From: Chiloscyllium plagiosum
Taxonomy: Eukaryota
DNA length: 64,000 nucleotides
Assembly: GCF_004010195.1 (NCBI RefSeq)
Contig: NC_057755.1
Span: forward strand, 3,867,462-3,931,461
Direction of reading: 5' to 3'
Shown: positions 1 through 64,000 of the stretch, one piece after another
Layout: every line of letters begins with the position of its first letter
How positions within the stretch are numbered: the first letter of the stretch is position 1
The notes under the pieces: model-generated
The model's database searches: none
What the model was told of the DNA's origin: nothing
The model's input: only the letters and a program-made list of their open reading frames with translations
Made by a program: the position numbers and the translations under genes

Positions 1-799
1 TCACAGCTGTAACATATTTAAAAAGATCAGTTTTAAATCAGTTATCATGCAGAGCCAAGGAATACTAGGGATTTAAGAGGAAGGTTCTTTCTTAATGATC
101 GGTTTGAGGGCAGATGTATTTCAATTACAAAAGGATGATGTTCCCACGCAATGATAATACATGTTGTTCAAATGTGTTTTCCAAGCAGAGGCAAATGTTT
201 AATGTATAAGCACCGTGAAAAGTGAGGGAAGTGAGACCATTGTAATTCTGGTCAAGTGTGAACCCCAGTCATCTGACTATATGGTGGAGAAAAAGGGATA
301 GATAATGTGAGTTAATTAATACTGTGGACGCACGGAGGTATAGATAACACAAACAAACTGCCACACAGCACCATTGCCTACCCCTGCAACGCTGCATTAA
401 CTCGCCTCAATTATCAACAAAACATACAAGAAGTGCAGTGAATTAACACTGAATACTTTACTTTCAATGTGGATTCCTGCAAGATTTAGGAAATGAATAA
501 TATGCTGTTCATCATTCAGTTTAAAATGTAAAGATGTATGCAACATGTATAAAGGCAGAAAGTAGAGTTAAACTATACGTTGGTCAGAAGCTCGGGCAAA
601 CCCGTCGTGCTCCTTCAGCAAAATAACCTGTCCAGACATCTATCGTCACTTCTGTGTTATAGATGATTTCTTTTGGACAGGTACCTCAATTGAAAGAAGT
701 GGACGTTCAGCTCAGTCCAATCTAGAAACATTTTTGTGACCGTGTAGTTGTAGATGAAAGAAAGTAACAGGGAATGAAACTCATTTACTCAGACATAAA

Positions 800-1265
800 G
801 TACCAAGTGCTTTACAGCTGCTCTGCCCCGGACCGTAAGAAACTACAGAAAGTTGTGAACACAGCCCAGTGCATTACACAAGCCAAACTTCCTGCCATTC
901 ACTCAATCTGCACTTCTTGTTGCCTCAGAACGGCAGCCAACATCATTAAAGACTCATCCCATCCCCGTTTAATCCTCTTCCAAACTTTTCCGTCAGTCTG
1001 AAGATACAAAAGCATAAACATGCATACCAATAGGTTCAAGAATATTTTCTTCTCCGCTGTTATTTGACTTGTGAATGGATCTCTCAATTTTAAAATCTAA
1101 TGCTGATCTTGCTTTTTGTGCACCTTCGTTGCAGCTGTACCTTTATATTCCTCGCTCTGTACAATCACCTGATGATCTTCGTGTCTTTGCATGTTAAAAT
1201 CTGCTGTACTACAAGCAAACAAATGATTTTCACAGTGCACAGGTAGATATGACAATAATAATAAA
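800..1265 (+). mobile_element. Rex1/Babar-type LINE 3-prime fragment (second copy at ~61640-62105)
   Basis: DRKKLQKVVNTAQCITQAKLPAIHSICTSCCLRTAANIIKDSSHP...LFQTFPS matches the typical Rex-Babar C-terminus. Confidence 0.7.
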
Positions 1266-1899
1266 ACAAATCAAACCAAATCAAATCAAAGGTAAAGGGA
1301 GAAAGTTAAATGACAGAGATATTGGAAGCGGTCGAACATCACAGCCAGACGAATAACTTGTGAAGACAGAGACGTGTTGTGTTTTTGACAGAGCTGTAAA
1401 CGTTGAAATGCCAGAGGATGGCATGTTCAATGTTGAGGGTGTTGCTGAAATATGAAAAGTGCATCACTGGGAAAGTTGCTAAGGTGGCACTGATGCCTTC
1501 ACAAAGAAAAGTATCCTGAGAAGAAACAACAGTTAGGGCAATTACAGTCAGGGTCACTTTGGAATCAGTGCCTCTGGAGAAATGTTGGTTAAAAAGACGA
1601 TGGACTATATAGGAGTAGGAGAAGTCATAAAGACAGAGAGGTTTATAACGCAGAAAAAGAAATGCACTTTGGCCTGTAGAGTCTATGCTGGTCAAATGCA
1701 ATTGCCTAACAATTCTCATGTGGTTTTCCAGCATTAGGTCCATAACCCTGCCATTACAACTGCACACATAAATAGTTCTGTTATCAGGGTATCCGCCTCT
1801 ACTGCCCTTTCAAGTAGCCATCCAGGGAGCCAAACTCTGGCTACCTGCAGCCTTGAGGAAGAATGCCTCATCTTCCGCCTTGGGACCCCCCCCCCCCCC

Positions 1900-2221
1900 N
1901 NNNNNNNNNNNNNNNNNNNNNNNNNNNNNNNNNNNNNNNNNNNNNNNNNNNNNNNNNNNNNNNNNNNNNNNNNNNNNNNNNNNNNNNNNNNNNNNNNNNN
2001 NNNNNNNNNNNNNNNNNNNNNNNNNNNNNNNNNNNNNNNNNNNNNNNNNNNNNNNNNNNNNNNNNNNNNNNNNNNNNNNNNNNNNNNNNNNNNNNNNNNN
2101 NNNNNNNNNNNNNNNNNNNNNNNNNNNNNNNNNNNNNNNNNNNNNNNNNNNNNNNNNNNNNNNNNNNNNNNNNNNNNNNNNNNNNNNNNNNNNNNNNNNN
2201 NNNNNNNNNNNNNNNNNNNNN
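1900..2221. other. Assembly gap
   Basis: Run of N. Confidence 1.
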
Positions 2222-2894
2222 CACAATACGCTAGCTGTGGCGTGGCCAATATTTTATACAGTTGCAGCATATTTTCCTTGCACTTCATCTCTATTAAAAG
2301 AACAAAAAATGTTCCTTATTCCTTTTGAACCATATTATCGACCTGTCATGCTGCCATAAGGTGTTCATGTGCAGCAAGGTCCCTTTGATTTTCAGTGTGT
2401 CTCAGGCTCATAACATTCTTCATGTTTTTCCCTTGCCTTGTATTTCCTTCCCATGTGCATCAGCTCACAAATCCTCATACTGAATTGAATTTGCCACCGA
2501 CCAGCCCATATCACCATCCTATTTACACCATCCCATAATCGAGGGCTATCCTCTTCACTCTTCAGCACTTCATCAATTTTTATACTGTCAGTGAACTTAT
2601 CCTGTATATTCCCCAGTATGTTGGTTTCCCGGTAGATGTGAATACCACCGTTCATCTTTAGTGGAACATGTGGGCCCTGTAATCTTTCTATTTCCTTCTT
2701 GAATGCATCCCACTCCTCTAACATGGATTCCCCTAAAAGTGTCTGCTCTCTGTCCAATCGCACACAATCTTATTAAAATTTGGGATTGCTCCAGTTTAGA
2801 GCTTTGATTTCTTGTCCTCGTCTTTTTCCATATTAATCTTGAGTTATTGTCATTGTCTGCAAAATTATTCCCCACTGAATTGCCATGTAGGAGA

Positions 2895-3720
2895 AAGACG
2901 AATTCAGATGTTGGAGATCAGAGTAGAGAGTGTGGTGATGGGAAAGCACAGCAGGTCAGGCAGGATTCTCGTCAGATCAACATCCCTCACTCCCAGGACC
3001 TTCTACCACCACCACAGGAAGTGCAAAAACTGCGCCCACCGGCCACCCCCTCACATCAATCCAAAGCCCCAAAGGGTCCTTCCACATCCAACAGACGTTT
3101 ACCTGTACCTCCACAAATGTCATCGACTGCATCCATAGCACCCGATGTGGTCTCCTCTATATCAGGAGACTGGATGCCAACTTGCGAAGCTTTTCAGAAA
3201 ACATCTCTGGTACACTCACACCAACCAGGTCAACTGCTCCATGGCTGAACACTTCAACTCCCCCTCCCACTCCAGCAAGAAAATGCAGGTCCTTGGCATT
3301 CTCCATCGCTAAACACAAACCATGCACTGCCTAGAGGATGAAAGCCTCATCTTCGGTCTTGGGACCCTGAATCCACACGGGATTAATGTGGATTTCACCA
3401 GTTTCCTCATTCCCCCTCCCTCCACCTTATCCCAGTCCCAAGCCTCCAACTGAGCACCGCCCCCTTGACCTATTCATCTTCCTTCCCATCGATCCGCTTC
3501 ACCCTCTTCTCTGACCTATCAGCCACTCCTCACCTTCATTTACCGAGCACATTCCCAGCTACCTTGCCCATAGCCCCACACACACCCGTTTTTGTCTAAC
3601 CCCCCATCCCCACGGCCTACAAGCCTCATTCCAGAAGAAGGGCATATGCCTGAAACGTTGATTCTCCTACACCTCAGATGCTGCTTAGCCTTCTGTGCTT
3701 TTCCAGCAGCACATTCTTCC
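2895..3720 (+). mobile_element. Penelope-like element fragment (GIY-YIG end plus terminal repeat)
   Basis: CKNCAH motif, VAEHFNSPSH-like segment and terminal ...gaagaagggcatatgcctgaaacg; inverted terminal fragment at the start. Confidence 0.7.
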
Positions 3721-4369
3721 CATTGAAATGTCAGCCCCTTACCCACCTTCCTTCCATAAAAATCGGGCCAGGAATGTCATCAAAGTGGGTGAAAGTACTA
3801 AAAACCAGTCTGGGATTGGCCAGACGAAGCTATACACAGTATGTTGTGGTAAAGAGAGAAGGAATGCAACCTCCAGTTTATCCAGCAGACAGCAAGAGAG
3901 GGATAAAGTGTTAAAACAGCTGTAAAATGCTCCAGACCCAGGGGTGAAACAGGAAGATCTGGGCCAAGTGTTGGATGATAGGGTGGGGGAGGAATTCCAA
4001 TGGTAATCGTGAACACGTGGAGTCTAATGAATCAAAACTGTGGAAAGCTGTGGGAAATCATGAAGGGACATTTGACAGTGAATGATTTGTTGCTGACAGT
4101 AAGAATAGGTCATATTCACTGTGGGTTTAAATAATGCTCATGTTCATTCCATATTTCAGAGATGTGTATTTCAGAGATAGCCACTGTCAGGTAGGAAAAT
4201 AAGCTTCAGTGTGCAGCTCCGGACTAATTCAGAAGCAAACAACATGCATTATGGGACAGGAGAAGCGGAATGAAGGAGATCATGAAAAATCCAATGTTTG
4301 AGGAGTCAGAGAGAACTGATTATCAATTCTTAACTGATTGGATCCTGCATTTTGAAATTCAAAATTCAA

Positions 4370-6143
4370 AGCGGGTAACTATAGAAAGGATTGGTCCACG
4401 AAAAGATAATGAAGGAAGGCTGTGTGCCAAATCTGAGAGAATGGGTGAGATTCTGAATAAAAACTTTGCATCAGTGTTCACTGAGGAGAGGAACATAATG
4501 AATCTTGAGATTAGAGATACAAGTTTAATTAGTCTGGATCACGTTGGCATAGTAGAGAAGATGTATTGGGTGTGCAAGAGGTTATCAAGGTGGACAAATC
4601 CCCAGGACCGGATGGGATCTATCCCAGGTTGCTGAGGGAGGTGAGAGAGGAAATAGCTGGGTCCCTGACAGATATCTTCATGGCAACTTTAAATACAGGT
4701 GAGATGCTGGAGGACTGGAAGGTTGCTCATGTTGTCTCCGTGTACATGAAGGGAAGAAGGGATATTCCAAGTAACAACAGATCCGTGAGCCTGACATCGG
4801 TGGTGGGGAAATTGCTGGAGTTGGTACTGAGAGATAGGATATTTTCATATTTGGAAAGGAATGAGCTTATCCGTGATGTGCAACATAGTTTTGTGCGGGG
4901 GAGATTGTGCCTTACCAACTTGATATAGTTCTTCTCGGAAGTGACCAAGTTGTTAGATGAAGGAAGGGCTGTGGATGTTGCATACATGGACTTTAGTAAA
5001 GCGTTTGATAAGGTTCCCCATTGCAGACTAATGGAGAAAGTGAAGTTACGTGGTGCGCAGGGTGTTCTAGCTAGGTGGATAACGAACTGCTTGAGCAACA
5101 GGAGACAGTGAGTAGTGGTTGAATTCGAAATGGAGAAAGGCGACCAGTGGTGTTCCACAGGGATCAGCATTAGGGAGACTGTTGTTTGTAATATACATAA
5201 ATGATCTAGAAGAGGCTATTGTTGGAATGATCAGCAAGTTTTCAGATGACACAAAGATTGGTGGAGTGGCAGAAAGCATCATGGAATGTCAGAGAATAAA
5301 GGACAATACACGTAGACTGGAAGGTTAGGCGGAAAAATGGCAGATGGCTTTAAATCTAGACAAATGTGAGGTGATGCATTTCGGAAGTCTAATTCTAGAG
5401 CGAATTATACAATGAATGGAAGAGCCTTGGGAAAAATTAATGGGCAGAGAGATCTGGGAGATGCATTGTAACCTGACGGTTGCTGCACAGGAGGATAGAG
5501 TGGTCAAGAAGGCATATAGTATGCTTGCCTTCATCGGACGGGGTATTGAGTATAAAATTGTACAAGACATTGGTTCGGCCGCATTTGGAGGACCATGTAC
5601 AGTTCTGGGCGCCACACTACCAAAAGGATATGGACGCTTTGGAAAGGGTACAGAGAAGGTGTACGAGGATGTTGCCTGGCATGGAAGGTGATAACTATGA
5701 AGAGAAGTTGAATAGGTTAGGTTTATTTTCACTAGAAAAGAGGAGATTGGGGTGGGGGGGGGACCTGATTGAGGGTTACAAAATCATGAAGGGTATAAAC
5801 AGGGTGGATAGAGACAAGCTTTTTCCCAGGGTGAAGGATCCAATACCAAGAGGTCATGCTTTCAAAGTGAGAGGTGGAAAGTTCAGGGGTGATACGCGTG
5901 GTAAGTACTTCACACAGAGGGTGGTGTGCGTTTGGAATGCGTTGACAGTGGAGGTGGTAGAGGCAGGCACGGTAGATTCGTTTAAGATGCGTCTGCCCAG
6001 ATGAATGAGTAGGTGAGGAGCAGAGGGATACAGATGCTTTAGGAATTGACCGACAGGTTCAGTCAGATCATTTGGATCGGCTCAGGCTTGGAGGGCCGAA
6101 TGGCCTGTTCCTGGGCTGCAAATTTTCTTTGTTCTTTGTTCTA
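4370..6143 (+). mobile_element. CR1 LINE, 5-prime truncated ORF2 and 3-prime tail
   Basis: KSPGPDGIYPRLLRE, DFSKAFDKVPH, SGVPQGS, FSDDTK, RGHAFK motifs; ends in ttgttctttgttct. Confidence 0.95.
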
Positions 6144-7142
6144 TCAGCCAACAGCAGATTAGAACTGCAGATTACCACTTTCTGTCAAGACAGGTATGGA
6201 GCAAGCTGCCAGAGAATGTAACGGAGGTGGTTAAAATTAGAACAATTCAAAGGTGTGGGTAAATGAAAAGGAAGGATTTAGGGGGTTTGGGCCAAATGCT
6301 GGCAAATGGGACAAAACTAACTAAGATATCTGATCTGCATGAACAAGTGGGCAAATGGGATTTTTCTGTGCTGTATGATTCAATATGAAGAAAATGATTC
6401 CTCAAATCTTCATCCTTCCCAAAAATGAAAAGTTTCACATGTACACCTCAATAGTTATCCACGCTGACAACGGGATACTTAATATTCAACAGTCAAAGCA
6501 AACAGAACCTGACACCCACACTGTATAAAGGAGATTAATCAGTTCTAAACCTTTCTTTGTAGTGTTACCTAAAGTAGGAAGGAATAAATGTGCTGCTATC
6601 AATACAAATACACAAAAATAAATATTCGCAGGAATGTAATAATACTGGGTTTGCAAGATCCACTGCTTTGAGTGACCAAAATCCATTGCAGTTCTATAAC
6701 TGCTGACATTCAAATCATGCATTCCTAGAAAGTAACCTCTAGTTCTGAGGTTTGATTCAGGAGTTCATAGCATTTGACTAAGTGCAATGATGTTGTAAAC
6801 CTGCTAAATCAGTTGAGGCAATGAAACAACACTATAAGAATTTTTACAATATATAATTTAACTGGATGATATTGCAACTTGTCATAGGTCTAACACTGCG
6901 CACTATATCAGAATGCAAATTTCTTAATTAACAAGGAGAAAGAGAGGATATATCATCTACAATTGTAAATCTTTGTGGACAGTTACCAGAAACACCATTG
7001 ATGGCAAGGAGCATGTTGGAAACTTTCCTGGCATATTTAATTGGCAGTTGCATTTTTAGAGAGGATTGGTAAGTCTTTGTTGTTGCACGTGATATGCAAA
7101 CACTAAATTCTGAGGTATTGCATTCTGTGGCTTTTTCCAGAC

Positions 7143-7480
7143 TGGCATAGTGTCTCAGTGGTTGGCACTACTGCATCATTGCGCTCAGGACCTGAGTTTG
7201 ATTCCTGCCTTGGGCGACAGTCCGTGTGGAATTTGCGCTTTCTCCCTGTGTCTGCGTGGGTTTCCAACAGGTGCTCCGGTGTTCGGCCACAATATAAAGG
7301 TTTGCAGGTTAGGTGAATTGGCCATGCTAAATTGTCCATAGTGTTCAGGGATGTGAAGGTTAGATGCATTAGTCAGGGGTAAACATAGGGTAGGGGGTAT
7401 CGGTCTGGGCAGATTACTCTTCAGAGGGTCGTTGTGAACTTTTTGGGCCTGTATCCACGTTGTAGGTATTCTATTCCGAG
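7143..7480 (+). mobile_element. tRNA-derived SINE (HE1/V-SINE-like)
   Basis: tRNA-like head with A/B boxes, core tgtggaatttgcgctttctccctgtgtctgcgtgggtttcc...gctaaattgtcc, and CR1-like tail. Further copies at ~26245-26475 and ~51145-51430. Confidence 0.8.
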
Positions 7481-8574
7481 ATCCTTATGTTCTGTCCGAT
7501 ATCCGCGGGGAGATTGATGTCGCAACTATAATGATGACAATTTTATAATTCTGAGTTTGGAGAAGATACTTGTCACAGAAATTAAACTGTGGCTGGATAC
7601 GTCTGACCTCATTGAGCTTTGTTAATTGTTGTGGGTCACATAACTTGGAGGACGTGTGGACCGTGTCTCAATAGAAAAACTTAAATCCCACTACTTTACG
7701 AACAAAGAGGCAGTTTGTTGTTTTAATTAAGCTGCCCTTAGATAAATATATTGTATTGCTTTCCAGTCTATAATTAACATTGTTTGCTGCATCAACTATG
7801 CTTTCCTGACCTTTAATGCACCGCTTAAATCTAAGTTTGCTTTATAATTAGTGTTTGATTTTTGTCCAGCAACGTGGTGCTGAGAGAATATACTTCACAT
7901 TGCTTCAGTGATTTCAGTAGTCACAATTTATGGTAAGACTCTCTAACAGTAGCGAACCTTCTCTAGAATAGGCCATTATTACCCATGTAGCAAATAATTT
8001 ACATTACCCTGGATTACTTGCAGCAATGCAATTGAACTTTCATTGTACCATGTCCCTACCCTAACTCTGCAGGAGAAATTCTTGTCACCTCATTGTCACA
8101 CTTCTGTCGTGGCATTAATTTGATTATGTCAGTTACTGATTCAATCGCATTCTGGCATAACATAGTGCAAAGCCAGACTCGGACGGTTCATTTTACATCC
8201 TCAGAAAATATGTGTTCTTTTAAACTTTAAAAATCATCTTATTCTTCCATTTGCTCTTTTGACAATAACCTGAGTGTCCGTTTGTTTTCCAGCTCTTTGA
8301 GAGTCGGGTACTTTTAAATCCATTTTCTCTGGTCAGATGACCCACAATTGTGAGGACACCTATTTTAAAAAAAAAACACTTGCAACCGAAACAGAAATGC
8401 CAAGCTTCTCAAATCTATCACCAGAGCTGATATCCCCGTACCAAGAGTCATTCTTCATAATATGTGCAGCACCTGTACAATATTCACACGTAGTTTGGAA
8501 AGTTTGGAGTTCAGATCTAGACGTGACACAATAAATCCTGCAAACTCCTTTGTGACTTGGATGTCATTGCCGAG

Positions 8575-9400
8575 GGGATGGTGAGTACATTTACAAATGA
8601 CCCCAATATTGGAGGTGTACTGGACAACGAATAAGATTGCTTTAGAGTCCAATGCACCTTGATCAGATGGGCCAATGGGCTGAGAAGTGGCAGATGGGGT
8701 TCAATTCAGATAGATGTGAGATGTTCCATTTTTTTATAGCAAACCAGGGTAGGACCTACACATTTAATGGTAAGGTCCTGGGAAGTGATACCAAACAAAG
8801 AGATCTTGGAGTGCAGATTCACAGTTCCTTGAAAGACTGATCGCAGATAAACGGGACTGTGAAGAAGGCATTTGGCATGCTTGCTTTTATTGGTCATTGC
8901 TTTGCGTATAAGAATTGGAATGCCAAGTTGCGGCTGTAAACGACATTGGTTAGTCCACTTTCGGAATACTACGTTTAATTCTGGTCTCCCTTCGAGAGGA
9001 AAGATATTATGAAACTTGAAAGGGTTCAGAAAGGATTTATAAGAATGTTACCAGGGCTGGAGAGTTCGATCTATACGGAGAGGCTGAGTCAGTTGAAGGT
9101 GATTTTATCTGGAACATCGGAGGCCAAGGGGAAGACTTGTAGAGATTTATAAAAGCATTAGGGATGTGGATAGGGTGAAGAGCCTAGGTTTCGTTCCCAA
9201 GATTGAGACGTCCAAAACTAGAGGGCACAGCTTTAAGGCGAGAGGGGAAAGATTTAAAAGGAAACTGAGCGGCAAGTTATTCACCCAGAGAGTGGTGCGT
9301 GGACGGAACAAGCTGCCAGAGGAAGTGGAGGAGGTAGGTACATTGCACTATTGAAGAGGCTTCTGAATGGGTGCACTACTGGGGATTGTTTTGTGGGATA
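8575..9400 (+). mobile_element. Decayed CR1 LINE 3-prime fragment
   Basis: WAEKWQMGFN, QRDLGVQIHSSLK, TRGHSFK, FTQRVV. Confidence 0.9.
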
Positions 9401-10087
9401 TAGCATGGATACAGGACCTTTGGCCCAAATTGCCGCATGCTGACCATGTGCTCCTTCCAATTGCTTGCATTTTTTCTATATCCTTCTAAACCCTTCCCAT
9501 CCATGTACCTTTTGAAATGAAGTTTAAATGTTGTTATTATACCTCCCTCAACCAGTTCCTCTGGCAACTCATTCCATTCACTCTCTGCGTGAAGAAATTG
9601 CCCCTCAGATCCTTCCTAAATCTTTCCCTTCTCAACTTCAACCCCCCTCAGATCCTTCCTAAATCTTTCCCTTCTCAACTTCAACCTATGCTCTCCAGTT
9701 TTTAATTCCCTATCCCCTTGGAATAAGGTTAAAAAACATTCCATCTGTGTCTTCCCTGCATGATTTTATGCACATCAATAGGGACACCCCTCATTCTCCT
9801 CAATCCAAGGAATAAAGTCCTCTCCTGGTCAACCTCTCCCTATAACTCAGGTCGATTAATTCTGGTAACATCTTGGCAAATCTTTCCAGGATTATTTGCG
9901 TCTTTCCTGCAACAGGGTGACCAAAACTGAACACAATATTCCAAGTGCAATATCGCCAATGACTTATACAGCTGTAACATAATATCCCAACTCCTATAAA
10001 CGTTGTTTTGAACGATATAAGACAGCATGCTAGATGTCTTCTTCACCATCCTGTCTACCTATGGCCCCACATTCCAAGGACTATGTA

Positions 10088-11690
10088 CATAGAACATAGA
10101 ACATAGAAGAATACAGCGGAGTACAGGCCCTTTGGCCCTCGATGTTGCGGTGATCCAAGCCCACCTAACTTACACTAGCCCACTATCCTCCATATGCCTA
10201 TCCAATGCCCGCTTAAATGCCCATAAAGAGAGAGAGTCCACCACTGCTACTGGCAGGGCATTCCATGAACTCACGACTCTCTGAGTAAAGAACCTACCCC
10301 TAACATCTGTCCTATACCTACCACCCCTTAATTTAAAGCTATGCCCCCTCGTAATAGCTGACTCCAAATGTGGAAAAAGGTCAACCCTATCTAACCCCCT
10401 AATCATCTTGTACACCTCTATCAAGTCACCCCTAAACCTTCTTTTCTCCAATGAAAACAACTCCAAATGCCTCAGCCTTTCCTCATACGATCTTCCTACC
10501 ATAGCAGGCAACATCCTGGAAAACCTCCTCTGCACCCGTTCCAGTGCCTCCACATCTTTCCTATCGTATGGCGAACAAAACTGCACACAATACTCCAGAT
10601 GCGGCCGCATCAGAGTCTTATACAACTGCAACATGATCTCAAGACTCCGGAACTCAATTCCTCTACCAATAAAAGCCGGTACGCCATATGCCTTCTTCAC
10701 CGCACTATTTACCTGGGTGGCAACTTTCAAAGATCGGTGTATGTGGACACCAAGATCCCTCTGCTCATCCACACTACCAAGTATCCGACCATTAGCCCAG
10801 TACCCCATCTTTTTGTTACTCTTACCAAAGTGAATCAACTCACACTTAGTTACATTGAACTCCATTTGCCACCTTTCTGCCCAGTTCTGCAACTTATCTA
10901 TATCCCGCTGTAACCTGCCACATCCTCCGACTTTCGTATCATCCGCAAACTTTCTCACCCAACCTTCTAACCCGTCCTCCACGTCATTTATAAAAATGAC
11001 AAACAGCAATGGTCCCAAAACAGATCCTTGCGGAACACCGCTAGTAACGGCACTCCAAGATGAACCTTTACCATCAACTACTACCCACTGTCTTCTTCCA
11101 GGCAGCCAATTTCTAATCCAAACCTCCAACTCACCCTCAATGCTACACCTCCGTATTTTATGAAGTAGCCTACCATGGGAAACCTTATCAAACGCCTTAC
11201 TAAAAGCCATATACACTACATCTACTGCTTTCCCCTCGTCCACCTCCTTAGTCATCTTCTCAAAGAATTCAATAAGGTTTGTGAGGCACGACCTGTCCTT
11301 CACAAAACTATGCTGACTATCCTTGATCACATTATTCCTATCCAGGTGTTCATAAATCCTATCCCTTACAATTCTCTCTCAGACTTTGCCCACAACAGAA
11401 GTGAGACTCACCAGCCTATAGTTTCTAGGGTTATGCCTACTCCCCTTCTTAAACAAGGGAACCACATTTGCGAGCCTCCAGTCTTCTGGCACTACTCCTG
11501 TAGACAACGAGGACATAAAAAGCAAGGCCAATGGCTCTGCAATCTCCTCCCTTGCTTCCCAGAGAATCCTAGGATAAATGCCATCAGGCCCAGGGGACTT
11601 ATCTATTTTCACCCTTTCCCGAATTTCCAACACCTCTTTCCAACATACCTCAAAGCCATTCATTCTACTTAATTGTGACTCAGTATTCAC
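10088..11690 (-). mobile_element. Relatively young CR1 LINE nested in an older CR1 (~9400-10087 plus ~11695-12190)
   Basis: 386-aa open RT segment with GVPQGSVLGP and FADDTK; (TTCTATG)n tail at 10088-10107. The older minus-strand element resumes in register on both sides. Confidence 0.93.
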
Positions 11691-12215
11691 AATTGTAATT
11701 GTACTGCTGGGTCCCTCTGTTCCACAACACTGTTCAGGACCTTAGCATTTACAGTGTAAGTTCTACCTTGGATTGACTTTCTAAAGTGCAACACCTCACA
11801 TTTATCTGAATTGCATTGTGTTTGCCAATCGTCAGCCCACATCCCTGCAATCTTTGACAATCTTCCTCGCTATCAATGATACCTCCTAATTTTGTATCAT
11901 CTGCAAACCTACTCATCATGCTGATCATTTATACAAGTAACAAATGCCGAAGGTCCCAGCACCAAACCCTGTGGCTCACCACTAGCACCAGGGCACCTGT
12001 CCGAGACACGACCTTCAACAATTACCCTCTACATGATAACATTGAGTCAATTATGAATCCAGTTTGCCATCTCTCCCTGTATACCATATGACCTAACATT
12101 CAGGACTAGCCTGTCATGTGGGATCTTGTCAAATACCTTAGTAAACTCGAAATAGACAACATTCACTGCCCTATCCTCATCAATCCTCTTGGTGGTCAAT
12201 TTAAAATTGCAACCA

Positions 12216-19829: not shown

Positions 19830-19858
19830 AAAGGAAATACAAGGTGAGGTCAGTGCAG

Positions 19859-50722: not shown

Positions 50723-50729
50723 CTAGGAA

Positions 50730-51130: not shown

Positions 51131-52199
51131 GAATGTGCCATAAAGGGGCAGCACAGTGGTTTACACTGCTGTCTCCGAACACCAGGGAGCTGGGCTCGAT
51201 TCTGTCCTTGGGTGGCTGTCTGTGAGGTGTTAGCACATTCTTCTTGTGTATGTGTGGGTTTCCTTTTACATTCCAAAAGATGCGCAGGTCAGGTGAATTG
51301 GCAATGCTAAATTGCCCAAAGTGTTAGGAACGGTATTCACAGGTAAAGTAGGGAAATGATTAGGGGTGGGTCAATCTTCAGTGGACTTGCTGAGCCAAAG
51401 GGCTTGGTTCCACACTGCAGGGAATCAATTTTTTTTAAATCAGATCCTTTCCTGCTTCACAGTGTTCTCAAAATATCTCATTCAATACATCCGAATCATC
51501 CTCCTCCTCATCAAAATCCAAACTGTTGAATACTTCAATAGCTTTATCTTCTCCATTTCTTTTCTGAAATGCCGTTTGACATGAGGTAGAGCTGATGGAA
51601 AATTGGTGTTTCTTCTATTGTTCGGAACATGCACCAGGGATGAAGTGATAACATTGAGAGTGAGTGCTGAACGTACAGTAAGAGACAGATAGATTAGATT
51701 CGAGGACAAGTTGCCTTGACCAAACAAAATATTATGTACTCTTTCTTATGCATCGATTAGGTACACGAGAAATTAGGGAAACAACCAGAAAAGTGAACAA
51801 ATAAAACTGGTTTTCGAATATTTGAATGGGGAGTGCATCAATCCCCGAAATGTTGCAATACTAGGACGATGCACCAAGTTGATGTAGCAAGCTGCTAATC
51901 CATCTCCAACAAAGCGGGTGCGAGGTTGGTTTGGGGGTGTTGAAAGAGACTGTCCCACTGTCTTGCCCCTCCATGTAGCTCAGACTGGGAGGCTCTAAGG
52001 TGAACTTATGTGCATCATTGAAGAAATAATTGGAACATGAAGCAGTTATTGGGATAGAAGACGCGTGAAGAGCTTCGAGTGGAATGCAGGAAATTGGATC
52101 AGGGAATCGAACTGCATACAGGTAAGATGGACCAATTGGCCGCTTCTGTGCCACAACATTCTATCATTCTGTGATCTCTTCCTCTCTCTCTTGAACCAG

Positions 52200-52318
52200 G
52201 TCTGCCTTTCCGCTGTGGAAAAGACAATGGGAGATGCAGACTAAGCACGTGTGCAGAGAATGAGTTCGAAACTAATGGGAAGTGTCTCTTGTTCTTCAAG
52301 TGTTGCAAGAGCTTGTGA
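52200..52318 (+). CDS. Beta-defensin-like gene 2, mature-peptide exon (signal exon not firmly identified)
   Basis: Polypyrimidine acceptor ctcttcctctctctcttgaaccag, phase 1, then LPFRCGKDNGRCRLSTCAENEFETNGKCLLFFKCCKSL-TGA. Same 6-4-10-5-0 cysteine spacing as gene 1 and shared G-x-CR, TC and EFE. Confidence 0.88.
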
Positions 52319-52432
52319 GTTCCAACTGGGGAAGCATGGCCAAAGCGAAGTTCTGTTTGGTGCTAAATGCTGTCACTCCGCACTTGTGTCAGCGGCAATG
52401 TGTGACAAGCCCACTCTTCCTGCATTGACTTG

Positions 52433-52438
52433 AATAAA
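52433..52438 (+). promoter_or_regulatory. Polyadenylation signal (AATAAA) of defensin gene 2
   Basis: AATAAA about 115 nt downstream of the TGA at 52318. Confidence 0.65.
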
Positions 52439-53589
52439 ACTCACTGCATTCATGATCACTTCTGTTCTGTTTTCATTTCTCATGGAGAGAACACCATCCC
52501 ATCTTTATTTTGAAAGAATACCCATCTGGTCCAAGTCTCTCTCACAAGCAGAAACAACTTCTCCGCACTTACCCTGTCGTGTACCCTAAGAATCTTGCAT
52601 GATTCAATTAGGTACGAACTCAGTTTTCTAAACTCTGATGCGTACAGGTCCAGCCCTACTCAACCAATCCTCACAAGACATTCCCTCCATTCCTGGGATA
52701 AGTCTGATGACCATCATAAGTTTAAAGGTAGGTGTGTTCACCAAATACTGCACAATGTTGAGCACCATTTGAAAATTCGCAGATACTGAAATAGTTCATG
52801 TTCAAATGCAACAACATCTGAAAACCATCCAGGCTCGGGCAGTGATACTTGCTCGTCATAATTACTATACAATGACCATCTCAAATAAGAGACAATGTAA
52901 GCAACTCCACATGAAACTTGATGGTGCAATCTTCATTGAATCCACCACTATCAACACCCTCGGGCTTATCATTGACCAGAAACTCAAGTGAACTCACCAA
53001 TAAACCCTGTGATTACAAGAGCAGGTCAGAGGCTAAGAAAACTGTGGCAAGTAACGCCCAAAGTCTGTGCACCAACTCCAAGGCACAACTCAGGATGTGT
53101 TGAGATATTCTCCATTTGCCGGGGTGAGTGCAGTTCCAGCAACACTCAAGAAGCTCGACAAGATCCAGGACAAAGCAGACAACTTGACATCTACAAACAT
53201 CCACTCACTCTGTCACTGACACTCAGTAGCAGCAGTGTGTAAGAGCTACAAGATAGCACTGCAGAAATTCACTAAATATCCTTAGACAGGATCTGCCAAT
53301 ACGCTTTCATTGTGAAGGACAAAGATAATTGCTAAATTGGAACACTACCACTTGCAAGTTTCCTATGAAGCCATTCAGCACCCTGATTTGGAAATATATC
53401 GTCTTTCCTTCACTGTTTTCGTCTACCAACAGCAGACGGAATGTGACGACTCAAGAAAACAACTCAGCAAAACATTCCCAAGTCACCCAGGAATGGGCAA
53501 TATATGCTGGACCCAGTCAGCAATGCTCATGTCACACGAGTGAATTAAATGCGAAGTTCCCTCCCTGGCAGTGCCTTCCAGATCTCTGC

Positions 53590-56500
53590 AGTCTTCATTG
53601 CACCCCATGCTCCCAGTAAAACAATTCCTACTTAAACCCATTCTAAATCTCTCAACTATCACTTTAACATGGTGCCCCTATGTTACTGAACCTTAGATTA
53701 ACGAAATGGATGCTCGCAATCCACCCTGTGCACACACCTCAGAATCTTCCAGACATTTATCAGCTGTCCCCTCGACCTTCTTTGCTCTAGTAATCTCCCT
53801 TCATCATTGAATGCTCCCATCCAAGCTACATCTTGGCGAATGATCTCTGCATTTCCTCTATTCCAGTCACAGCTTAAAATCTCACAACCCCGGGTTATCG
53901 CCCAACAGGTTTATTTGGAAGCACTTGCTTTCAGAGCGCTGCTCCTTCATCAGGTGCTTGTGATGTAGGACCATAAGTGTACATACTCCACAACCACCTG
54001 AAGAAGGAGTAGTGCTCCGAAATCTGTTGGACTATAATTGGCGTTGTGTGATTTTTAACTTTGTCCTCCCCAGTCCAACATTGGTTCCTCCACATCAATA
54101 TAGCAACATCCATCTACAGTGTGGTCACCAGAACTTCACGTAGTTCTCCAGTTGTGACCTAGCCAATGTCCTGTAAATCTCCAACGTAACTTCCTTGCTC
54201 TCATAATCAATGCCTCTTTTGATAATGACAAGCACAGCCTTTGCCTTCTTAACTATCTAATAGCCAATGGTTGCAACTTCAGGTTCTGTGGACAAACACC
54301 CACAAATCCCTCTGTTCCACTGACATTCCTGGTCTCCTACCATTCATTGAGTACTCTCGAGTCATGTTACTTAATTCAATGTTCATTAATCCACATTTAT
54401 CAGGGTTAAATTCCTCCCACCACCCTTTTTTTGGGTTGGTGGTTTGCCTTATTAACAGCGAGAGGGAGGATGTCTGAAAATGGTAGTGCCATCGCTTGGA
54501 AAGGTAATGGCCCAGGTTGGATTGTCATCCTTCCTGGGGATTGTTGTGTCCCACCAAAGGGTGGCAGCATCAGAGTGCTGCTGACCGTGGGAAGTCTCCG
54601 AAATTGATTGCAGCCTCTACCTCATATCTTCAGCTCTAAAACAGAAAAGGGAACATTCTACAACGATTGAAGTCGACATTTCTCCGTCACCATTACATGT
54701 TGTAGCCCTCAGGGTGATGAAGTGCACAGAGACACAGTTTCGAATGACCCAACAACAATTACAGAGTCATGGAGGTCTTCAGAAAAAAGGCATTTTGGCC
54801 GATCAAACCACTGTCGATCAAACACAAATGTCTAACTATTGTTCTTAATCAATCACAAGTTGTGGGCATCACTGGCTGGACCATCATTTATTGCTTCCCT
54901 TAATTTCCAAGACGGCAATTGTCACCACATGGCCATGGGTTTGGATTCACATGGATTCTATATTTCCCTAAAGGAGAGCAGTGAACCAAATGGACATCTT
55001 TCCCAACAATCACCAAAAGTTTCGTGGTCACCATTAGACACTGCATTTCCAATATTTGTTTCAATAAAATTCATTTCCACCATCTGCCAAGGCCTGAAGA
55101 AAACCAAGTTCCTCAGAATCCTACTTGGGTCTCTAGACCAACAATCCACAATAATATCACTGGGCCATGTCATCTCCAATGACCTAATTCCATTCTGATT
55201 CCATTTTCCAACGATGGGCCTACAAGCCTGCATGCCGAGGCAACACAAGTGCACATTGACAATATCAAAGAGTGCAGCATAAGTAAAGGCCATTCATCCC
55301 ATCCCACCATGTCTGTGAGGACCACAATGCCATTCAACTGTAATCCCATCTGTCTGAACATAGTCTGTATCCCTCTATTCACTTGCTGTTTATGAGTGTT
55401 CATAAATGGATCTTTCACATTGCGAATGTAACTGTTTTGACCAACTCCTCTTGCACCGTGCTCCAGTCACTAACCATGCTTTTCATAAAAAAACTTGCCT
55501 CATGCATCACCTCCAAACATTTTCCCTCAACTTAAACCTATGCCCCTAGTGTTTGACATTTCCACCATGGGTCAAAGACTTTGGTTATTCACCCTACCCG
55601 TGTCTCTCATAATTTTAAACGCTGTTATCTGGTCACACCTCAACATCCAACGCTCTCGTGAAAACAATCCAAGCTTGTCGAACCTTGCCCTATATCTAAT
55701 ATACTCTAATCCAAGCAACATCCTGGGAAACCACTTATTCAGCCTCTCTGAGACCTCCACAGCCTTCCCTTATTGTGGTGGCTGGAACTACACGTAGTAC
55801 TCCAAATGTGGAACCACTAAAATCTTACACCGTTGTAACATGAATTTCCAACACAGTGGCCTAACTGAAAAAGGCAAGCCTGCCCGACGCCTTCTTTACC
55901 ACCTTAGCCACTTGCGTTGATACTGGCCTGGAGATATTGGGTTGTACCCTGATATCCCTATAAATGCTTTCATCTAAGTACCTCTTCAAAATAATGAATC
56001 CTTCTGACTCCATCACCCTTACAGCCAGTGAGTTTCAGATTCGCACTACCCTCTGACTGAATAAAATAGAAGTCCCTCAATCCCTCTAAATCTTCCATCC
56101 CTTCTTGTAAATCGATGTCCCCTGGCCATTTCTGCCTCCACCGAAGGGAGTAATTTCTTCCTGTCTACCCTGACTGTGCCTCTCAGCGATACATCTCTAT
56201 CATGTCCCCTCTTAATCTGATCTGTTCTGAGAAAATAAAACTCCACTCTGTCCAAACTGTCTTCACAAGGGAATCTCTTCAACTCAGGTAACATGCTGGT
56301 TAATCACCTCTGCCTACATCCACTGTCACATCCATCCTATCATGTAGATCCCGAAGTGCACACAATGAACCCAGAACAATGTTTCATACAGTTCCAGCAA
56401 AACAGTTCTCAGCAGCATCACGATTGATTCAGACCTTTTATGAAATACTGAAGGACAGTCTGAGCCTGGGACAGAGCCCTGAACAGCTGAGCAGGAGGTC

Positions 56501-57900
56501 TGCAAAACTTTGCTCTGTCCACTTGGAAACCTGGTTCAGGTACAGCCTGTCAATGACTGAGGGATGGACCATATTCTGCACTTCACCCGATGAACCCTGA
56601 ATCTTACTTGCCCGGCTTGTTTATGAGCAGGTACACAAGTCTTATCCCAGGTATAGAGGGGACTGTCGCGTGAGAAGAGATTAAGTGGATTGGCCCTGCG
56701 CTCATTAGAGTAAGAAGAACTTTACTGAAACATATAAGTCTATCAGGGGATTTGACAGGCTAAATAGAGAAAGGTTCTTTCCCCTTTTAGCAGACTCTTG
56801 GACCAGAAAGCATCACTTCATAGTAAGGGGTTGTCCACTTCAGGCTGATCTGAGGGGAAATGGCTTCTGCCATAGAAAATTAAAACTGCAGCATTCTTTA
56901 TCACAGAGGGCTGTGGAGGATGGATAATTAAGTATATTCAAGATTACGACAGAAAGATGTTTAATTCGGAAGGAAATAAAAGATTGAGTGGAAAATACAT
57001 AGAAATGGACTTGAGGATGATCAGATCAGTTAAGATCTGATGGAGTGGTGGAACAGTCTCGATGGACACTCTGCAGATGGTGAAAATGTCCTCTTTGTGG
57101 TAGGGAGACTAAACAACACACACTGCTCCAGGGCTGGTTTCACCAAGTCCCTGTCCAGATTCAGTGAGGCATCTTGAATCTGAACTCCAATCCTTTTGCA
57201 ATGGAGGCCAACCTTCCATTTGCCTTCTTCATTGCTCAAGCAGTGAGTAAACTGTTGGTTCACAGTGAGGGCAAGCTTCCAAACAAGATGGCAGACAGGA
57301 TGGCGACTGGTTCTGCTTCAGAGCTGAATATTGAAGAAAACATTAGTTGTTTATAAGGAATATGTAACTATTGGGAGACAGCTGATGATGATTTAACCTG
57401 GGGATCACCTGAGGTTGAAGAAGATGAGATCTGCATGCTGTTAATGACTTGGAACAAAGAAGTGAATGTTCTGTGTTCAAAACTGCAGACAGCGTAACAA
57501 TGTGGCAGGGTTTTGGGGAAGGCAGCTTGCAAGAGGGGTGAAACCATTTTATGGAGAGTATTGATAGTATCAGTCAGTGGGCATAACTTTGACAAATTGT
57601 GTACAATGTTGGAATATGTGATGTTTTACATCTTGGAGGGGAGAACAAAAGCACAGATTATTGAAATGGAGAAAGTTGCAACATAAATCAATTTGGGAGA
57701 ACATGGAAAACGAGCACACGGGGCAGCTTGTGATCGGGAATGGCAATAGAATGTTGGGTCTCATACTTACAGGAGGGAGTATCATAGTATCATAGAGGGA
57801 TTGGGATTTTTAAACCATGTAGGGAGGACTAATGTGTCATTGTGTCGATACTGGTCATGGAAGATTAATCTTTTCTAATCCTATATTCCATCATTTAGCT
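53590..57900. mobile_element. Patchwork of old CR1 fragments on both strands with a short Penelope-type insertion (~53875-54100)
   Basis: ERLNKWFPRMLLGLE...LGLFSRE (55572-55760), RGHRF (56046-56294) and others; boundaries approximate. Confidence 0.7.
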
Positions 57901-60845
57901 AGCAGCCTCGCATACTATGGTATTTCAAGTGCTCATCTAAATAGTTCTTGATTGTTGTGACAACTCATACCTGTTCAGATCTTTTCAGGCAATGAGGTCC
58001 ACATCACTCTGAATACCTCAGTGAAAAAAAATTGCTCAAATCCCCTTACCTTATATCTGTGCATATTGGTTACTGACTCCCGACTGAGGGGAAAGAGTTT
58101 GCGCTATTTACCTGTCTATATCACTCAGAACTTTACACAGTAGGACTGCAGAAAGGCATGGGGTTAGGGAGCATTGTGAGGCCAAATGTGATTACTGTCT
58201 GAGTACATGAAACGGTTTGGAGAAGAACACAGAACTGAGAGGCCTGTGAGTCTCGAATTATTTGCAGAAATAAGAGGGAGTGACTCTGGAGAAGATCAAA
58301 GGGAAAGAGAAGTTCTGTGAGTGTGCAAGTGCTTACAATAATAATGATGGAGTCGGACTGCAGGAGGGCAGAAAACGAGTGGATGCAGGAACACTGGAAG
58401 CTAATACAAATAAAAAACACAGTGAGGCTGGAGGATGAAACAGAGTTCCGGAGAACTGTCGAGTTTGGAGCAGACTGCAGAGATGGTGAAGGCCGCATTT
58501 GCCTCGTGGGTAATGCAAGGGAATTAGCTTCAGCAAACTGCAAGCTATGGCATCGTCAGGAAAGATCATTGTGGTTGGGAAAGATTACTGAATTAGGGAT
58601 TTTTCCAGCCTGGAGGTAGTGCGGAGATAGAAAGTCGTGCAAACGTGCAGAGGTTCGAGAGAAGGATTGTGTGAAATCATTGACAGATTTGAAAACAAGA
58701 CCACTTTGAAATGCAGATGTTTCTGGAGACAATGCAGTTCAGTTAGAGACCACGTGTGGCAGGAGTTACATGATGGACAACATTCATTTCAACAACATGA
58801 GGCTGACTGACACTAATATCATGCCAAGTCAGAATTTGAAATTTCCAGTAATGATGTGAGAACAGATCGATGGATGATTTACACAACAAATGAGCGGATG
58901 CAATAATTAAATGGAAACAAACTGTCTTGATGCTGAGAACTGGTTCGAAGTTATCTCAAAACTCATTTTCAAATGTGTGACTGGGATTTTTCTGGGTCAA
59001 CCTGAGGCAGTTCCCAGGAAGTGGTGGAGGTTGTCATAAGCTGTCAATCAATGACATTGACCCCAACATTGAATACAGTGTCAGTCCCTGGACCCACCTC
59101 CAGCTTTCCCCCCAATCCTTCTTAATGATGGTAACCATGACGTTTTAATCTGCCCAGATTACAACACGTCCTCCCATCTCCCTCCAACTCCCAATAAACA
59201 AGCAGTATCACGAGGTATCAGGAGATAAGAATATCCCCAACACCAGCTAGTGGTGTGAGAATCTACATTATATTAATAATTGGGATATTTTTTATTGACG
59301 TGGGAAGCAGTTTTGCATACGCTTTGATTTCCATTTTGAAAACTGAAATGTTCTTTTGCTTCCCCGAATGCAATGGGCTGGAAATGGAAATAACAGAGCT
59401 GGAAGTGACACTTTGGATCATGATTAGCTTTCCATGATACAGGAGGAAGCAGAGACCCTGCTCTTGCCATTTCAGTTCCGATAATCTTAGGTGAATCTTG
59501 GCTCTGGCCCTTGCTCCACTGATCTTTAGCCTGTGCCGTATCTACAGCTCCTTTACGCTGGTCTCCCAAATATGAAACAAAAACCAAAACATAAATTGCT
59601 GCAAAGACCCAGCAGGTTTGGCAGCATTTGTGGGAGAGAAATCCCAGTTAATGCTTCGGGTCCAGTGACCCTTCTTCAGAACAGAAATGTTAGCTCTTCT
59701 CCTTGAATTGGGAAACCTGTGTCCTTATCTTCATCTTCTTTTCGTTCTCTTGATGCCTGCTAAATATTCTATCTTCTGTTCTCTCCCTGAGAGATGTGCA
59801 TCTCTACAATGGTTACCTTTCGTCTTCAATGATCATTTCTTACCCCCTACCCATTGGATTTTGAGCTTTTGTCAGGTTTATGCAGTGATTAGTTAAATAA
59901 TTCTGGAAACTGGATATTTCATCGTTCTTTTGAACTGAGCTCTGACATTGGGTAGAGGCACCATGTAAATATTTGTGTTTGTGGATCAACCTATATTGCG
60001 CAGCATGTATCCAACTTGTTCAAAGATTCAAAGATTTCATAGTCATAATCCGTTAACTGATCTGGGAGACCAAATATATGGAAAACATATAACAGCCAGA
60101 GAATTACGAACTTTCCAGATATTGCAATGCATAAAATCACTGTCTGAATTCTACTCTTCAGCTTGGGCTCACTCTGCTCGTCTTCCTTACGAAAACACCT
60201 CAGTCCCTTACAGTCTTGTCTTGTAAATAAAGTGTGTGTGACTGTCAGACCATTGAGGAACAGAATGAAAAATAAGGCAAGAATGGGTTTAAAGCCACAG
60301 CAAATGAGTGAAATCCAATGCAGCAAGATTCAGCAAAGTAGCTGCCCTTATTCCTGCCGTAAAATAGCCTGTTCCTAGTTATATTTTTTAGTCTCAAATC
60401 TAAAATGCCAAGAACATTTTATAAACAAAGGAGAATGTCGATTGTTGACACAAATGCAGTAAACAATTACTAGTCCAGTATTTAGTTTTCAGTTTGTGGC
60501 AACAAAAGCTGACTAAGCGATCAAAGATGAATGTGACAGTGAACTAGACAGAACAGTCAGTGAAAATGGCCAGCAGATCTGTTGTTGCCATGGCCACCAG
60601 ATAACGTGTTATGCAGGTAGCGAGGCCTTACTTATTGATAGGAAAGTGCTAAAAGTTGGACCACTCTTTTCCTTTTATTCATGTTGACATCAATGGCAAG
60701 GCCAGCATATATTGCCATTTGCTAAGAAAGGAATTAAGATTCAATTACATTGCTGTGGATCTGGAGTTACCTATAGACCATTCCCTACCTTCTGAAAAGA
60801 TAGGTGCCTCACTACAATGAGTTGTATTCGGAGGAAAACATGCCA

Positions 60846-63800
60846 TCATAGCTGTAAAATATCAAAAAAGATCAGTTATCATGGCAGAGCAAAGAAATAC
60901 TGGGGATGTAAGAGGAAAGTTCTTTCTTAATGATCGGTTTGAGGGCAGATGTATTTCAATTACAAAAGGATGATGTTCCCACGCAATGATAATGCATGTT
61001 GTTCAAATGTGATTTCCAAGCAGAGGCAAATGTTTAATGTATAAGCACCGTGAAAAGTGAGGGAAGTGAGACCATTGTAATTCTGGTCAAGTGTGAACCC
61101 CAGTCATCTGACAATATGGTGGAGAAAAAGGGGTAGATAATGTGGGTTAATTAATATTGTGGAGGCACGAAGGTAGAGATAACACAAACAAACTGCCACA
61201 CTGCACCATTGCCTACCCCTGCCACGCTGCATTAACTCGCCTCAATTATCAACAAAACATACAAGAAGTGCAGTGAATTAACACTGAATACTTTACTTTC
61301 AATGTGGATTCCTGCAAGATTTAGAAAATGAATAATATGCTGTTCATCATTCAGTTTAAAATGTAAAGATGTATGCAACATGTATAAAGGCAGAAAGTAG
61401 AGTTAAACTATACGTTGGTCAGAAGCTCGGGCAGACCCGCCGTGCTCCTTCAGCAAAGTAAACTGTCCAGACATCTATCGTCAGTTCTGTGTTATAGATG
61501 ATTTCTTTTGGACAGGTATCTCAATTGAAAGAAGTGGACGTTCATCTCAGTCCCAGCTAGAAACATTTTTGTGACCCTGTCGGTGTAGATGAAAGGAAGT
61601 AAGAGCGAATGAAACACATTTACTCAGTCAGAAAAGTACCAAGTGCTTTACAACTGCTCTGCCCGGGACCGTAAGAAACTACAGAAAGTTGAGAACACAG
61701 CCCAGTGCATTACACAAGCCAAACTTCCTGCCATTCACTCAATCTACACTTCTTGTTGCCTCAGAACGGCAGCCAACATCATTAAAGACTCTTCCCACCC
61801 CCGTTAAATCCTCTTCCAAACTTTTCCGTCAGTCTGAAGATACAAAAGCATAAACATGCATACCAATAGGTTCAAGAATATTTTCTTCTCCGCTGTTATT
61901 TGACTTGTGAATGGATCTCTCAAATTTAAAATCTAATGATGATCTTGCTTTTTGTGCACCGTCGTTGCAGCTGTAACTTTATATTCCTCGCTCTGTTCAA
62001 TCACCTGATGATCTTCGTGTCTTTGCATGCTAAAGTCTGCTGTTCGACAAGCAAACAAATGATTTTCACAGTGTACAGGTAGATATGACAATAATAATAA
62101 AACAAATCAAATCATATCAAAGGTGAAAGGAGAAAGGACAATGACAGAGATGATGGAAGCGGTCGAACATCAAAGCCAGTGGAATAACTTGTGAGGACAA
62201 GACGTGCTGTGTTTTTGATAGAGCTGAAAAGTTTGAAATGCCAGAGGATGGCATGTTGAATGTTGAGGGTGTTGCTGAAATATGAAAAGTGCATCACTGG
62301 GAAAGTTGCTAAGGTGGCACTGATGCTTTCACAAAGAAAAGTATCCTGAGAAGAAACAACAGTTCGGGCAATTACAGTCAGAGTCATTTTGGAGTCAGTG
62401 GCTCTGGAGAAATGTTGGTTAAAAGACGATGGACTATATAGGAGTTGGAGAAGTCATAAAGACAGAGAGGTTTATAACGCAGAAAAAGATATGCACTTTG
62501 GCCTGTAGAGTCTATGCTGGTCAAATTCAATTGCCTAACAATTCTCATGTAGTTTTCCAGCATTAGGTCCATAACCCTGCCATTACAACTACACACATAA
62601 ATAGTTCTGTTATCAGGGTATCCGCCTCTACTGCCCTTACAAGGAGCCATCTAGGGAGCCAAACTCTGGCTACCTGCAGCCTGGAGGAAGAATGCCTCAT
62701 CTTCCGCCTTGGGACCACCCCCCCCCACCCCCACAAACACAAGAGATCAATGTGGATTTCCCCTCTTCCCACCTTATCCCAGATCCAACCTTCCAACTCG
62801 GTGTCGCCCTCTTGAACTGTCCTACTTAACCATCCTCCTGCCTATCTATCCACTCCACCCTCCCCTTCGACCTATCACCATCACTCCCACTTTCATCTAA
62901 CTATTGCATTCCCAGCTACATTCCCCCACAACAGCCCCCCTCCCATTTATGATTCAGCCCCCTTGGGCCGCTCCCTCATTCCTGATGGAGCCTACTAAAA
63001 CGTCGACTTCCCTACTCGGCGGATGCTGTCTGAGCGGCTGTGCTTTTCCAGCACCCCACTATTCTACCCGTCCAGGCAGTAATTTCCAGATTGCCACCAC
63101 AGTCTCAGTGGCAAACGAAACATCCTGCCTCTTTGCATCCATGCCCCGGTCATTTACAAGCCCAAAAAGGGGAAAACGTATGTATTTCAATGCTGTCTAT
63201 GCTCCTTATGATTCTATATATTGAAACCACGTCCGCTCAAGAATCTTCCCTGCCCCAACGAAAACAAGACTAATCCATCCAATCTCGCTTCGTACCTAAA
63301 GCTTTCCAACATTGGAATCATCATGGAAATCTCTGCATCATTTCCAGGGCAATGAAAATACACCTACCTTGTGGATTCCAGAACTGCACACAATACGCTC
63401 GCTGTGGCGTGGCCAATATTTTATACAGTTGCAGCATATTTTCCTTGCACTTCATCTCTATTAAAAGAACAAAAAATGTTCCTTATTCCTTTTGAACCAT
63501 ATTATCGACCTGTCAAGCTGCCATATGGTGTTCATGTGCAGCAAGGTCCCTTTGATTTTCAGTGTGTCTCAGGCTCTTACCATTCGTCATGTTTTTCCCT
63601 TGCCTTGTATTTCCTTCCCATGTGCATTAGCTCACAAATACTCATACTGAATTCCATTTGCCACTGATCAGCCCATCTCACCAGCCGATTTACACCATCC
63701 CATAATCGAAGGATATCCTCTTCACTCTTCAGCACTTCATCAATTTTTTCCTGTCAGTGAACTTATCCTGTATATTCCCCAGTATGTTGGTTTCCCGGTA

Positions 63801-64000
63801 GATGTGAATACCACCGTTCATCTTTAGTGGAACATGTGGGCCCTGTATTCTTTCTATTTCCTTCTTGAATGCATCCCACTCCTCGAACATGGATTCCCCT
63901 AAAAGTGTCTGCTCTCTGTCCAATTGCACACAACCTTATTAACATTTGGGATTGCTCCAGTTTAGAACTTTGATTTCTTGTCCTCGTCTTTTTCCAAATT
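60846..64000 (+). repeat. Segmental duplication copy B (paralogous to 1-2834)
   Basis: Starts tcatagctgtaaaatat (cf. tcacagctgtaacatat at 1) and continues to the window end (cttgtcctcgtctttttcca, cf. 2811-2830). Confidence 0.95.

Follow-up and report, generated by a model that had tools for sequence, protein, structure and literature searches.

The two ends of a 64,000-base stretch of the genome of the shark Chiloscyllium plagiosum (assembly GCF_004010195.1, contig NC_057755.1, positions 3,867,462 to 3,931,461; the whole stretch is referred to here as the window) are two copies of the same sequence, copy A on the left and copy B on the right, which lie on the same strand about 61.2 kb apart, have diverged by 4.8% and have two beta-defensin-like genes (dA and dB) between them. 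The duplication is real and old; that it reaches over the defensin-like genes is plausible, and an analogy to the copy-number variation (CNV) of defensins in other vertebrates is speculation. Among the explanations considered, we tentatively prefer an old, direct intrachromosomal segmental duplication, in which a block was copied once, head-to-tail, and the resulting pair is now fixed.

The duplicated window ends

In a self-BLASTN of the window, two same-strand blocks (1-1897 with 60846-62726, 94.2% identical including gap columns, and 2222-2834 with 63389-64000, 95.8% identical) were clearly the best among 43 off-diagonal hits, the other 41 being far weaker, and at that filter no further match of at least 88% over more than about 110 bases was found inside the window. 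The match is open at both window edges, beginning at base 1 and ending at base 64000. Global alignment of copies A and B gave 2,488 columns with 115 substitutions (42 transitions and 73 transversions; about 95.4% identity), 7 indels (11, 1, 1, 5, 1, 1 and 1 bases) and a Kimura two-parameter (K2P) divergence of 0.048 +/- 0.004; the longest identical tract measures 117 bases. The offset from copy A to copy B is 60,829-60,845 bases in the left block and 61,167 bases in the right block, and the two values (about 60.84 and 61.17 kb) differ because copy A holds 322 N where copy B holds 662 bases. This is one of three N gaps in the window (1900-2221, 18321-18554 and 24913-25015). The pair is in direct orientation. 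It is longer than 1 kb, about 95.4% identical (the identity threshold for segmental duplications being 90%) and includes low-copy DNA, and is thus probably a segmental duplication. A first-pass annotation, made from the letters of the window, had described the ends as paralogous, in the same orientation, running off both edges, separated by many substitutions and indels and offset by about 60.8-61.2 kb, all of which is reproduced here, with the spread of the offset traced to the N gap in copy A.

Comparison with a close relative

Public sequencing runs were compared with positions 44001-64000 of the window, i.e., with dB and copy B (dA and copy A lie outside this part). The best public runs share 0.27-0.40 of the window's words, none being evidently from the species of the window, and four of the 24 matching runs were compared (three DNA runs, X2, X3 and X8, and one RNA run), all from a relative about 4% diverged. 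The figures for the relative come from the best 24 of 242,678 contig pieces and the best 40 of 1,691 difference rows, which were picked as the longest or best supported, so that fixed differences are favoured.

At the matched end the relative has one sequence class, about equidistant from copies A and B. It differs from the window interior at 324 of 8,124 bases (4.0%; 19 pieces, one of depth 6.28 being dropped) and from the matched end at 77 of 1,627 bases (4.7%; four pieces). Over three shared spans, 19, 34 and 13 substitutions separate the relative from copy B, and 23, 31 and 14 separate copy A from copy B; the fourth end piece has 11 between the relative and copy B over 501 bases, and 13 between A and B in the 299 shared bases. 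Seven of the best 40 difference rows fall in the matched end, four of them at sites where A and B differ, and at all four the relative has the copy A letter (at full depth in three runs at three sites, and in two runs at the fourth, where X3 has 5.15 of 51.2). Six of the seven indels between A and B are covered by the relative, which has the copy A state at five and the copy B state at one, always the longer form (the state being read from net lengths and gap counts, not from letters). The end pieces show no doubling of depth (in X2 21.4 and 22.9, with an interior median of 21.6 from 6 pieces; 50.5 against 65.3 from 7 pieces in X3; 61.6 against 88.9 from 7 pieces in X8), and position 62207 is covered by one contig each in X2 and X8.

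The differences between A and B look evolutionary, and neither copy looks like an error-ridden version of the other, because an error-ridden B would put the relative about 9% from B and an error-ridden A would not share letters with the relative. The earlier argument against a simple misassembly is therefore supported, such an origin being unlikely. Because the relative is about equidistant from the two copies, the duplication is probably about as old as the split from this closest sampled relative. The relative appears to have no second copy of diverged sequence, although it may carry several homogenised ones; its contigs do not reveal the extent of the unit because the diverged copy appears to be missing there. 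A conversion of the divergence into time with the epaulette shark rate of 7e-10 per generation, as given in excerpts of PMC10587355, yields about 34 million generations, a figure that we distrust, and no age is claimed from it. Between the window and the relative's contigs, the transition/transversion ratio is 0.84-0.87 in all three DNA runs. Such values are low for vertebrate nuclear DNA.

The matched end is a mosaic. In X2 its bins have summed contig depths between 167 and 85,192, a spread of about 500-fold, and single-class contigs of the relative occur at 61998-62513, one of them spanning 61998-62301. The ends are not one transposon, as the first-pass annotation had also proposed, because bin depth varies over this range and a single-class contig crosses 61998-62301.

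Extent of the duplicated unit and alternative explanations

Long blocks are favoured because a block of length l exits both window edges in about l minus 3.15 kb of the window placements. With power-law priors alone (four assumed priors), a length-bias model built on this relation gave a probability of 0.21-0.83 that the block is at least 61 kb long and of 0.45-0.94 that the dB exon lies in duplicated DNA; with a point mass for head-to-tail units (16 assumed priors), the probability was 0.22-0.90 for a tandem unit and 0.59-0.92 for the dB exon in duplicated DNA. The modelling tips the balance slightly towards the whole interval of about 61 kb being the tandem unit, fixed and polymorphic states taken together.

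A block of about 61 kb would then have been copied once, head-to-tail, within the same chromosome, at around the age of the split from the closest relative sampled. The likeliest mechanisms would be unequal crossing-over, with the many retroelement remnants as sites of exchange, and template switching during replication. The window would comprise one full unit plus 3 kb, and a diverged second dA would be expected at about -24 kb or +98 kb and a diverged second dB at about -9 kb or +113 kb, in window coordinates. The copies would since have drifted apart by independent decay and would probably be fixed, which would make the event an ordinary birth-and-death step among the defensins rather than part of an array that still changes in copy number. 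Of these two states the fixed pair is the more probable, because the short identical tracts would make exchange between A and B inefficient (efficient non-allelic recombination is usually quoted as needing a few hundred identical bases).

Several points weigh against such a duplication of the whole interval. All evidence on the extent of the unit comes from the length-bias model, the result of which depends on the assumed priors. The first-pass annotation had let the duplicated unit carry a defensin cluster; what stands of this is that two defensin-like genes lie between the ends, but both are outside the matched part. A second copy of dA or dB turned up neither in the scans of the window nor in the searched protein collections. 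As the relative has a single sequence class, it does not directly support a second interior copy, and no duplication junction was found among the best 15 of 1,329 joints in its contigs. Finally, the transition share between A and B (42 of 115) is lowish against 582 of 1,276 in X2 (Fisher p 0.06) and is not different from random (p 0.49).

It is quite possible that a shorter direct duplicon, between a few and a few tens of kb long, was inserted 61 kb from its source, the interval being mostly single-copy. Such a duplicon may include dB, if copy B extends 8.6 kb further to the left, and would probably not include dA. The visible match is only 3.15 kb long, short duplicons outnumber long ones, and under priors that give tandem units a 5% share this explanation keeps a probability of 0.48-0.78. 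Divergence is also among the highest in the first 100 bases of copy A (9 substitutions and 2 indels), which could mark a nearby edge of the duplicon. However, few window placements of a short block exit both edges, and two interior 100-base bins of the alignment have 12 substitutions each, so the first bin of copy A is not special.

That a tandem unit of about 61 kb still varies in copy number, and with it shark defensin dosage between animals, is improbable, and so is the fuller claim of a tandem duplicon of about 61 kb with two previously undescribed shark beta-defensin genes that is multi-allelic in copy number in the species. An identity of 95% is compatible with CNV because the rhesus macaque DEFB2L copies, 91.3% identical, still vary from 3 to 6 per diploid genome (excerpts of PMC4255768). 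In the relative, low-depth bins scale more strongly between runs than high-depth bins (X3/X2 2.26 against 1.60; X8/X2 2.38 against 1.66), but the X3/X2 ratio falls stepwise with depth (2.26, 1.84, 1.60), a pattern expected from saturation or subsampling. Copy number cannot be read from summed contig depth, and an estimate of copy number from local depth scaled to repeat depth was dropped, as the ratio drifts with depth. The difference at position 61435 is all-or-none in the relative's three samples (11.7 of 11.7, 0 of 57.5 and 200.3 of 200.3), like that of one locus, and the identical tracts between A and B, at most 117 bases, are below the usual length for efficient non-allelic recombination. 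A young active array is also opposed by the divergence of about 4.8% and by the one sequence class in the three samples of the relative.

A false duplication, in which two very divergent haplotypes of one locus were set in series and joined at an N gap, is highly unlikely. It would fit the three N gaps in the window, one of which is flanked by a local 700-base repeat, and the one class of the relative without doubled depth at the matched end; immune loci can also hold deep haplotypes. However, the haplotypes would need a divergence of 4.8%, which is species-level (4.0% for the interior and 4.7% for the end in the relative) and about 24 times the nucleotide diversity of 0.002 that excerpts of PMC10587355 give for the epaulette shark, and most of the best 40 of 1,691 differences are nearly fixed in all three samples of the relative, and nothing there suggests deep haplotypes. 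That both ends derive from a single large mobile element or dispersed composite repeat, irrelevant to the interval, is scarcely credible. Parts of the matched end do recur in the relative (about 35-45 times the depth of a single class at about 61330, and very high depth at 62677-63343), but the block also has stretches with one class at interior-like depth (62138-62229), and depth spans about 500-fold along it.

The beta-defensin-like genes

Six-frame cysteine scans and an acceptor-anchored scan of the window found two mature-peptide exons and no more (Table 1). The genes dA and dB to which they belong are predicted to be beta-defensin-like and old, with good but not formal support from their sequences. 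They are divergently oriented, 14 kb apart, and their peptides are 37% identical with the same cysteine spacing, the last two cysteines being adjacent. In dA, an 801-base GT-AG intron joins the two exons into an open 75-codon frame, a TATA-like word lies about 60 bases upstream of exon 1, and the mature part has a net charge of 0; its signal peptide was judged from hydropathy only. The pro-piece of dA is short and ends in a dibasic pair across the splice. For dB there is a good acceptor and an AATAAA at 52433. Of 12 loose candidates for its first exon in the window (e.g., 40981-41029 and 45589-45646), none was convincing, these being rejected as lying in repeat-like DNA or having weak donors. 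The segment 45412-45486 lies near a TATA-like word and a weak candidate for the first exon of dB; this segment and the site at about 61330 have roughly 3 to 45 times single-class depth in the relative and are low-copy repeats.

Like vertebrate beta-defensins, dA and dB have six cysteines ending in CC and a short mature peptide, and dA has a signal-like first exon. Unlike proteins that conform to the Pfam beta-defensin models, dA gave no Pfam hit and has an uncharged mature part, and dB matched Defensin_beta (PF00711, E 0.0039, 17.6 bits against a cut-off of 21) and Defensin_beta_2 (PF13841, E 0.0042, 17.9 bits against 22.2) under the curated cut-off in both cases. The nearest clusters in the ESM Atlas are beta-defensin (0.81 for dA and 0.84 for dB), which is a lead only. 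Beta-defensins have a three-stranded fold with 1-5, 2-4 and 3-6 disulfides; single-sequence structure models of the two peptides were of low confidence (predicted local distance difference test scores of 52 and 64); a fold search, made with the dB model only, gave no significant match, and no defensin was matched among solved structures. Protein searches found no relative of dA or dB. Word searches gave no hit, and a search of 1.84 billion representatives, a collection that does contain annotated shark proteins, gave one spurious TPR-like hit (E 3e-4). A third cysteine motif at 19433-19507, in what we take to be a LINE-like (long interspersed nuclear element) remnant, was rejected (no Pfam hit, and absent from the acceptor scan), and the remaining CC motifs of the cysteine scan are microsatellite or chance frames. 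The single-cell RNA run of the relative, sampled at about 2 in 100, had no depth on the dB bin, which is evidence neither for nor against expression.

Table 1. Coordinates of the duplicated ends, the beta-defensin-like exons and the retrovirus-like remnant in the 64-kb window
Feature	Position	Strand	Description
Copy A, left block	1..1899	+	95.2% identical over 1,877 columns to 60846-62724; continues past window start
Assembly gap in copy A (322 N)	1900..2221		Counterpart in copy B has 662 bases
Copy A, right block	2222..2834	+	95.9% identical over 611 columns to 63390-64000; match end set by window end in copy B
Interval between matched ends	2835..60845		Would be the remainder of the unit if the duplication is head-to-tail
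Copy B	60846..64000	+	Mosaic of repeat remnants and low-copy DNA; continues past window end
dA exon 1	37788..37881	-	ATG and signal-like hydrophobic stretch, then a short pro-piece and a phase-1 GT donor
dA exon 2	36853..36986	-	Phase-1 acceptor, six cysteines (6-4-10-5-0), stop
dB exon	52200..52318	+	Phase-1 acceptor, six cysteines (6-4-10-5-0), stop, net charge +3
ERV-like (endogenous retrovirus) remnant, old	27751..36019	-	Direct repeats 27751-28285 and 35482-36019, 80% identical, K2P 0.24

Comparison with known defensin loci

Because both segmental duplications and duplications of defensin genes are familiar, there is nothing unusual in the duplication by itself; it is of interest mainly as a way into the beta-defensins of sharks. 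The antimicrobial-peptide section of a 2019 review names no defensin for cartilaginous fish (PMC6795676), and a literature search by title, whose coverage largely left out subscription journals, returned no paper on shark defensins. If the unit contains dA and dB, it would represent a datable birth event in the family, and copy-number assays could make use of its paralogue-specific variants. A unit that is polymorphic as well would provide a test, in a very distant vertebrate lineage, of the convergent evolution of defensin dosage variation; defensin CNV would then have been reached independently in cartilaginous fish, besides primates, cattle and chicken. Excerpts of PMC11521603 report defensin duplication and CNV in dog, pig, chicken and cattle.

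The first-pass annotation had drawn an analogy to the CNV at human 8p23.1. According to the excerpted text of PMC4255768 and PMC8099727, this locus is a 322-kb block with long terminal repeat (LTR) boundaries and commonly 2-7 copies, and its cassettes in CHM13 are 544-693 kb long, contain at least 5 near-identical defensin genes, with hardly any protein difference between copies; the locus is tied to an inversion. The likeness holds insofar as beta-defensin genes lie in segmentally duplicated DNA there and beta-defensin-like genes lie between duplicated ends here, but the shark unit would be about 61 kb at most, with two unrelated defensin-like genes, a DNA divergence of 4.8% and direct orientation. 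The rhesus macaque DEFB2L repeat, a 20-kb tandem unit with LTR65 at both boundaries (excerpts of PMC4255768), is the closer analogue. As in the macaque, there are direct copies, of a block that would be tens of kb long, that are several percent diverged (91.3% identity there and about 95% here), with retroviral LTRs near. In contrast to the shark locus, for which extent and defensin content are inferred and CNV is hypothetical, the unit, its boundaries and the 3-6 copies are demonstrated for DEFB2L in these excerpts, and unlike the LTR65 boundaries, the LTR-like pair of the shark predates the duplication and is linked to no boundary.

Beta-defensin genes have three exons in teleosts, birds and reptiles and two coding exons in mammals (excerpts of PMC8231796), so that the two coding exons of dA correspond to the mammalian layout and are unlike the three of the other groups. 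If typical of sharks, the two-exon layout of dA and its uncharged mature part would bear on the ancestral layout of the gene. The cysteine spacing of sea bass defensin 2, calculated from positions in an excerpt of PMC8231796, is 5-3-11-5-0, against 6-4-10-5-0 in dA and dB.

Repeats and other features of the window

The window consists largely of retroelement remnants (Pfam RVT_1 and Exo_endo_phos_2). Among the best 120 of 5,406 hits, a reverse-transcriptase remnant at 10173-11378 had its highest identities with named vertebrate records in Hemiscyllium ocellatum (81% over 65% of the query), Chiloscyllium punctatum (67%) and Stegostoma tigrinum (67%), which points to a carpet-shark-type elasmobranch as the most likely source. 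Two reverse-transcriptase records with bacterial names, on contigs of less than 2 kb, were 71% and 61% identical to the retroelement frame of the window; they have the look of vertebrate contamination in bacterial assemblies. Repeats within the matched ends are presumably CR1-like and Penelope-like; two frames tested there gave no Pfam hit.

Each direct repeat of the ERV-like remnant contains a tandem pair of 87 bases, and a minus-strand env-like frame (28482-28826) matched Pfam TLV_coat with E 2.5e-5. One end of the remnant lies about 830 bases from the dA stop codon. The remnant is older than the duplication of A and B and is at most a candidate boundary of it.

A local direct repeat (16863-17562 and 18555-19287) is 91% identical with a 33-base indel, and its second copy starts directly after the N gap at 18321-18554; it is either a small tandem duplication or a gap-edge effect. 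Smaller tandem pairs were also seen, namely a perfect 43-base pair at 9601-9686 and a 114-base pair containing GA microsatellites at 19859-20080.

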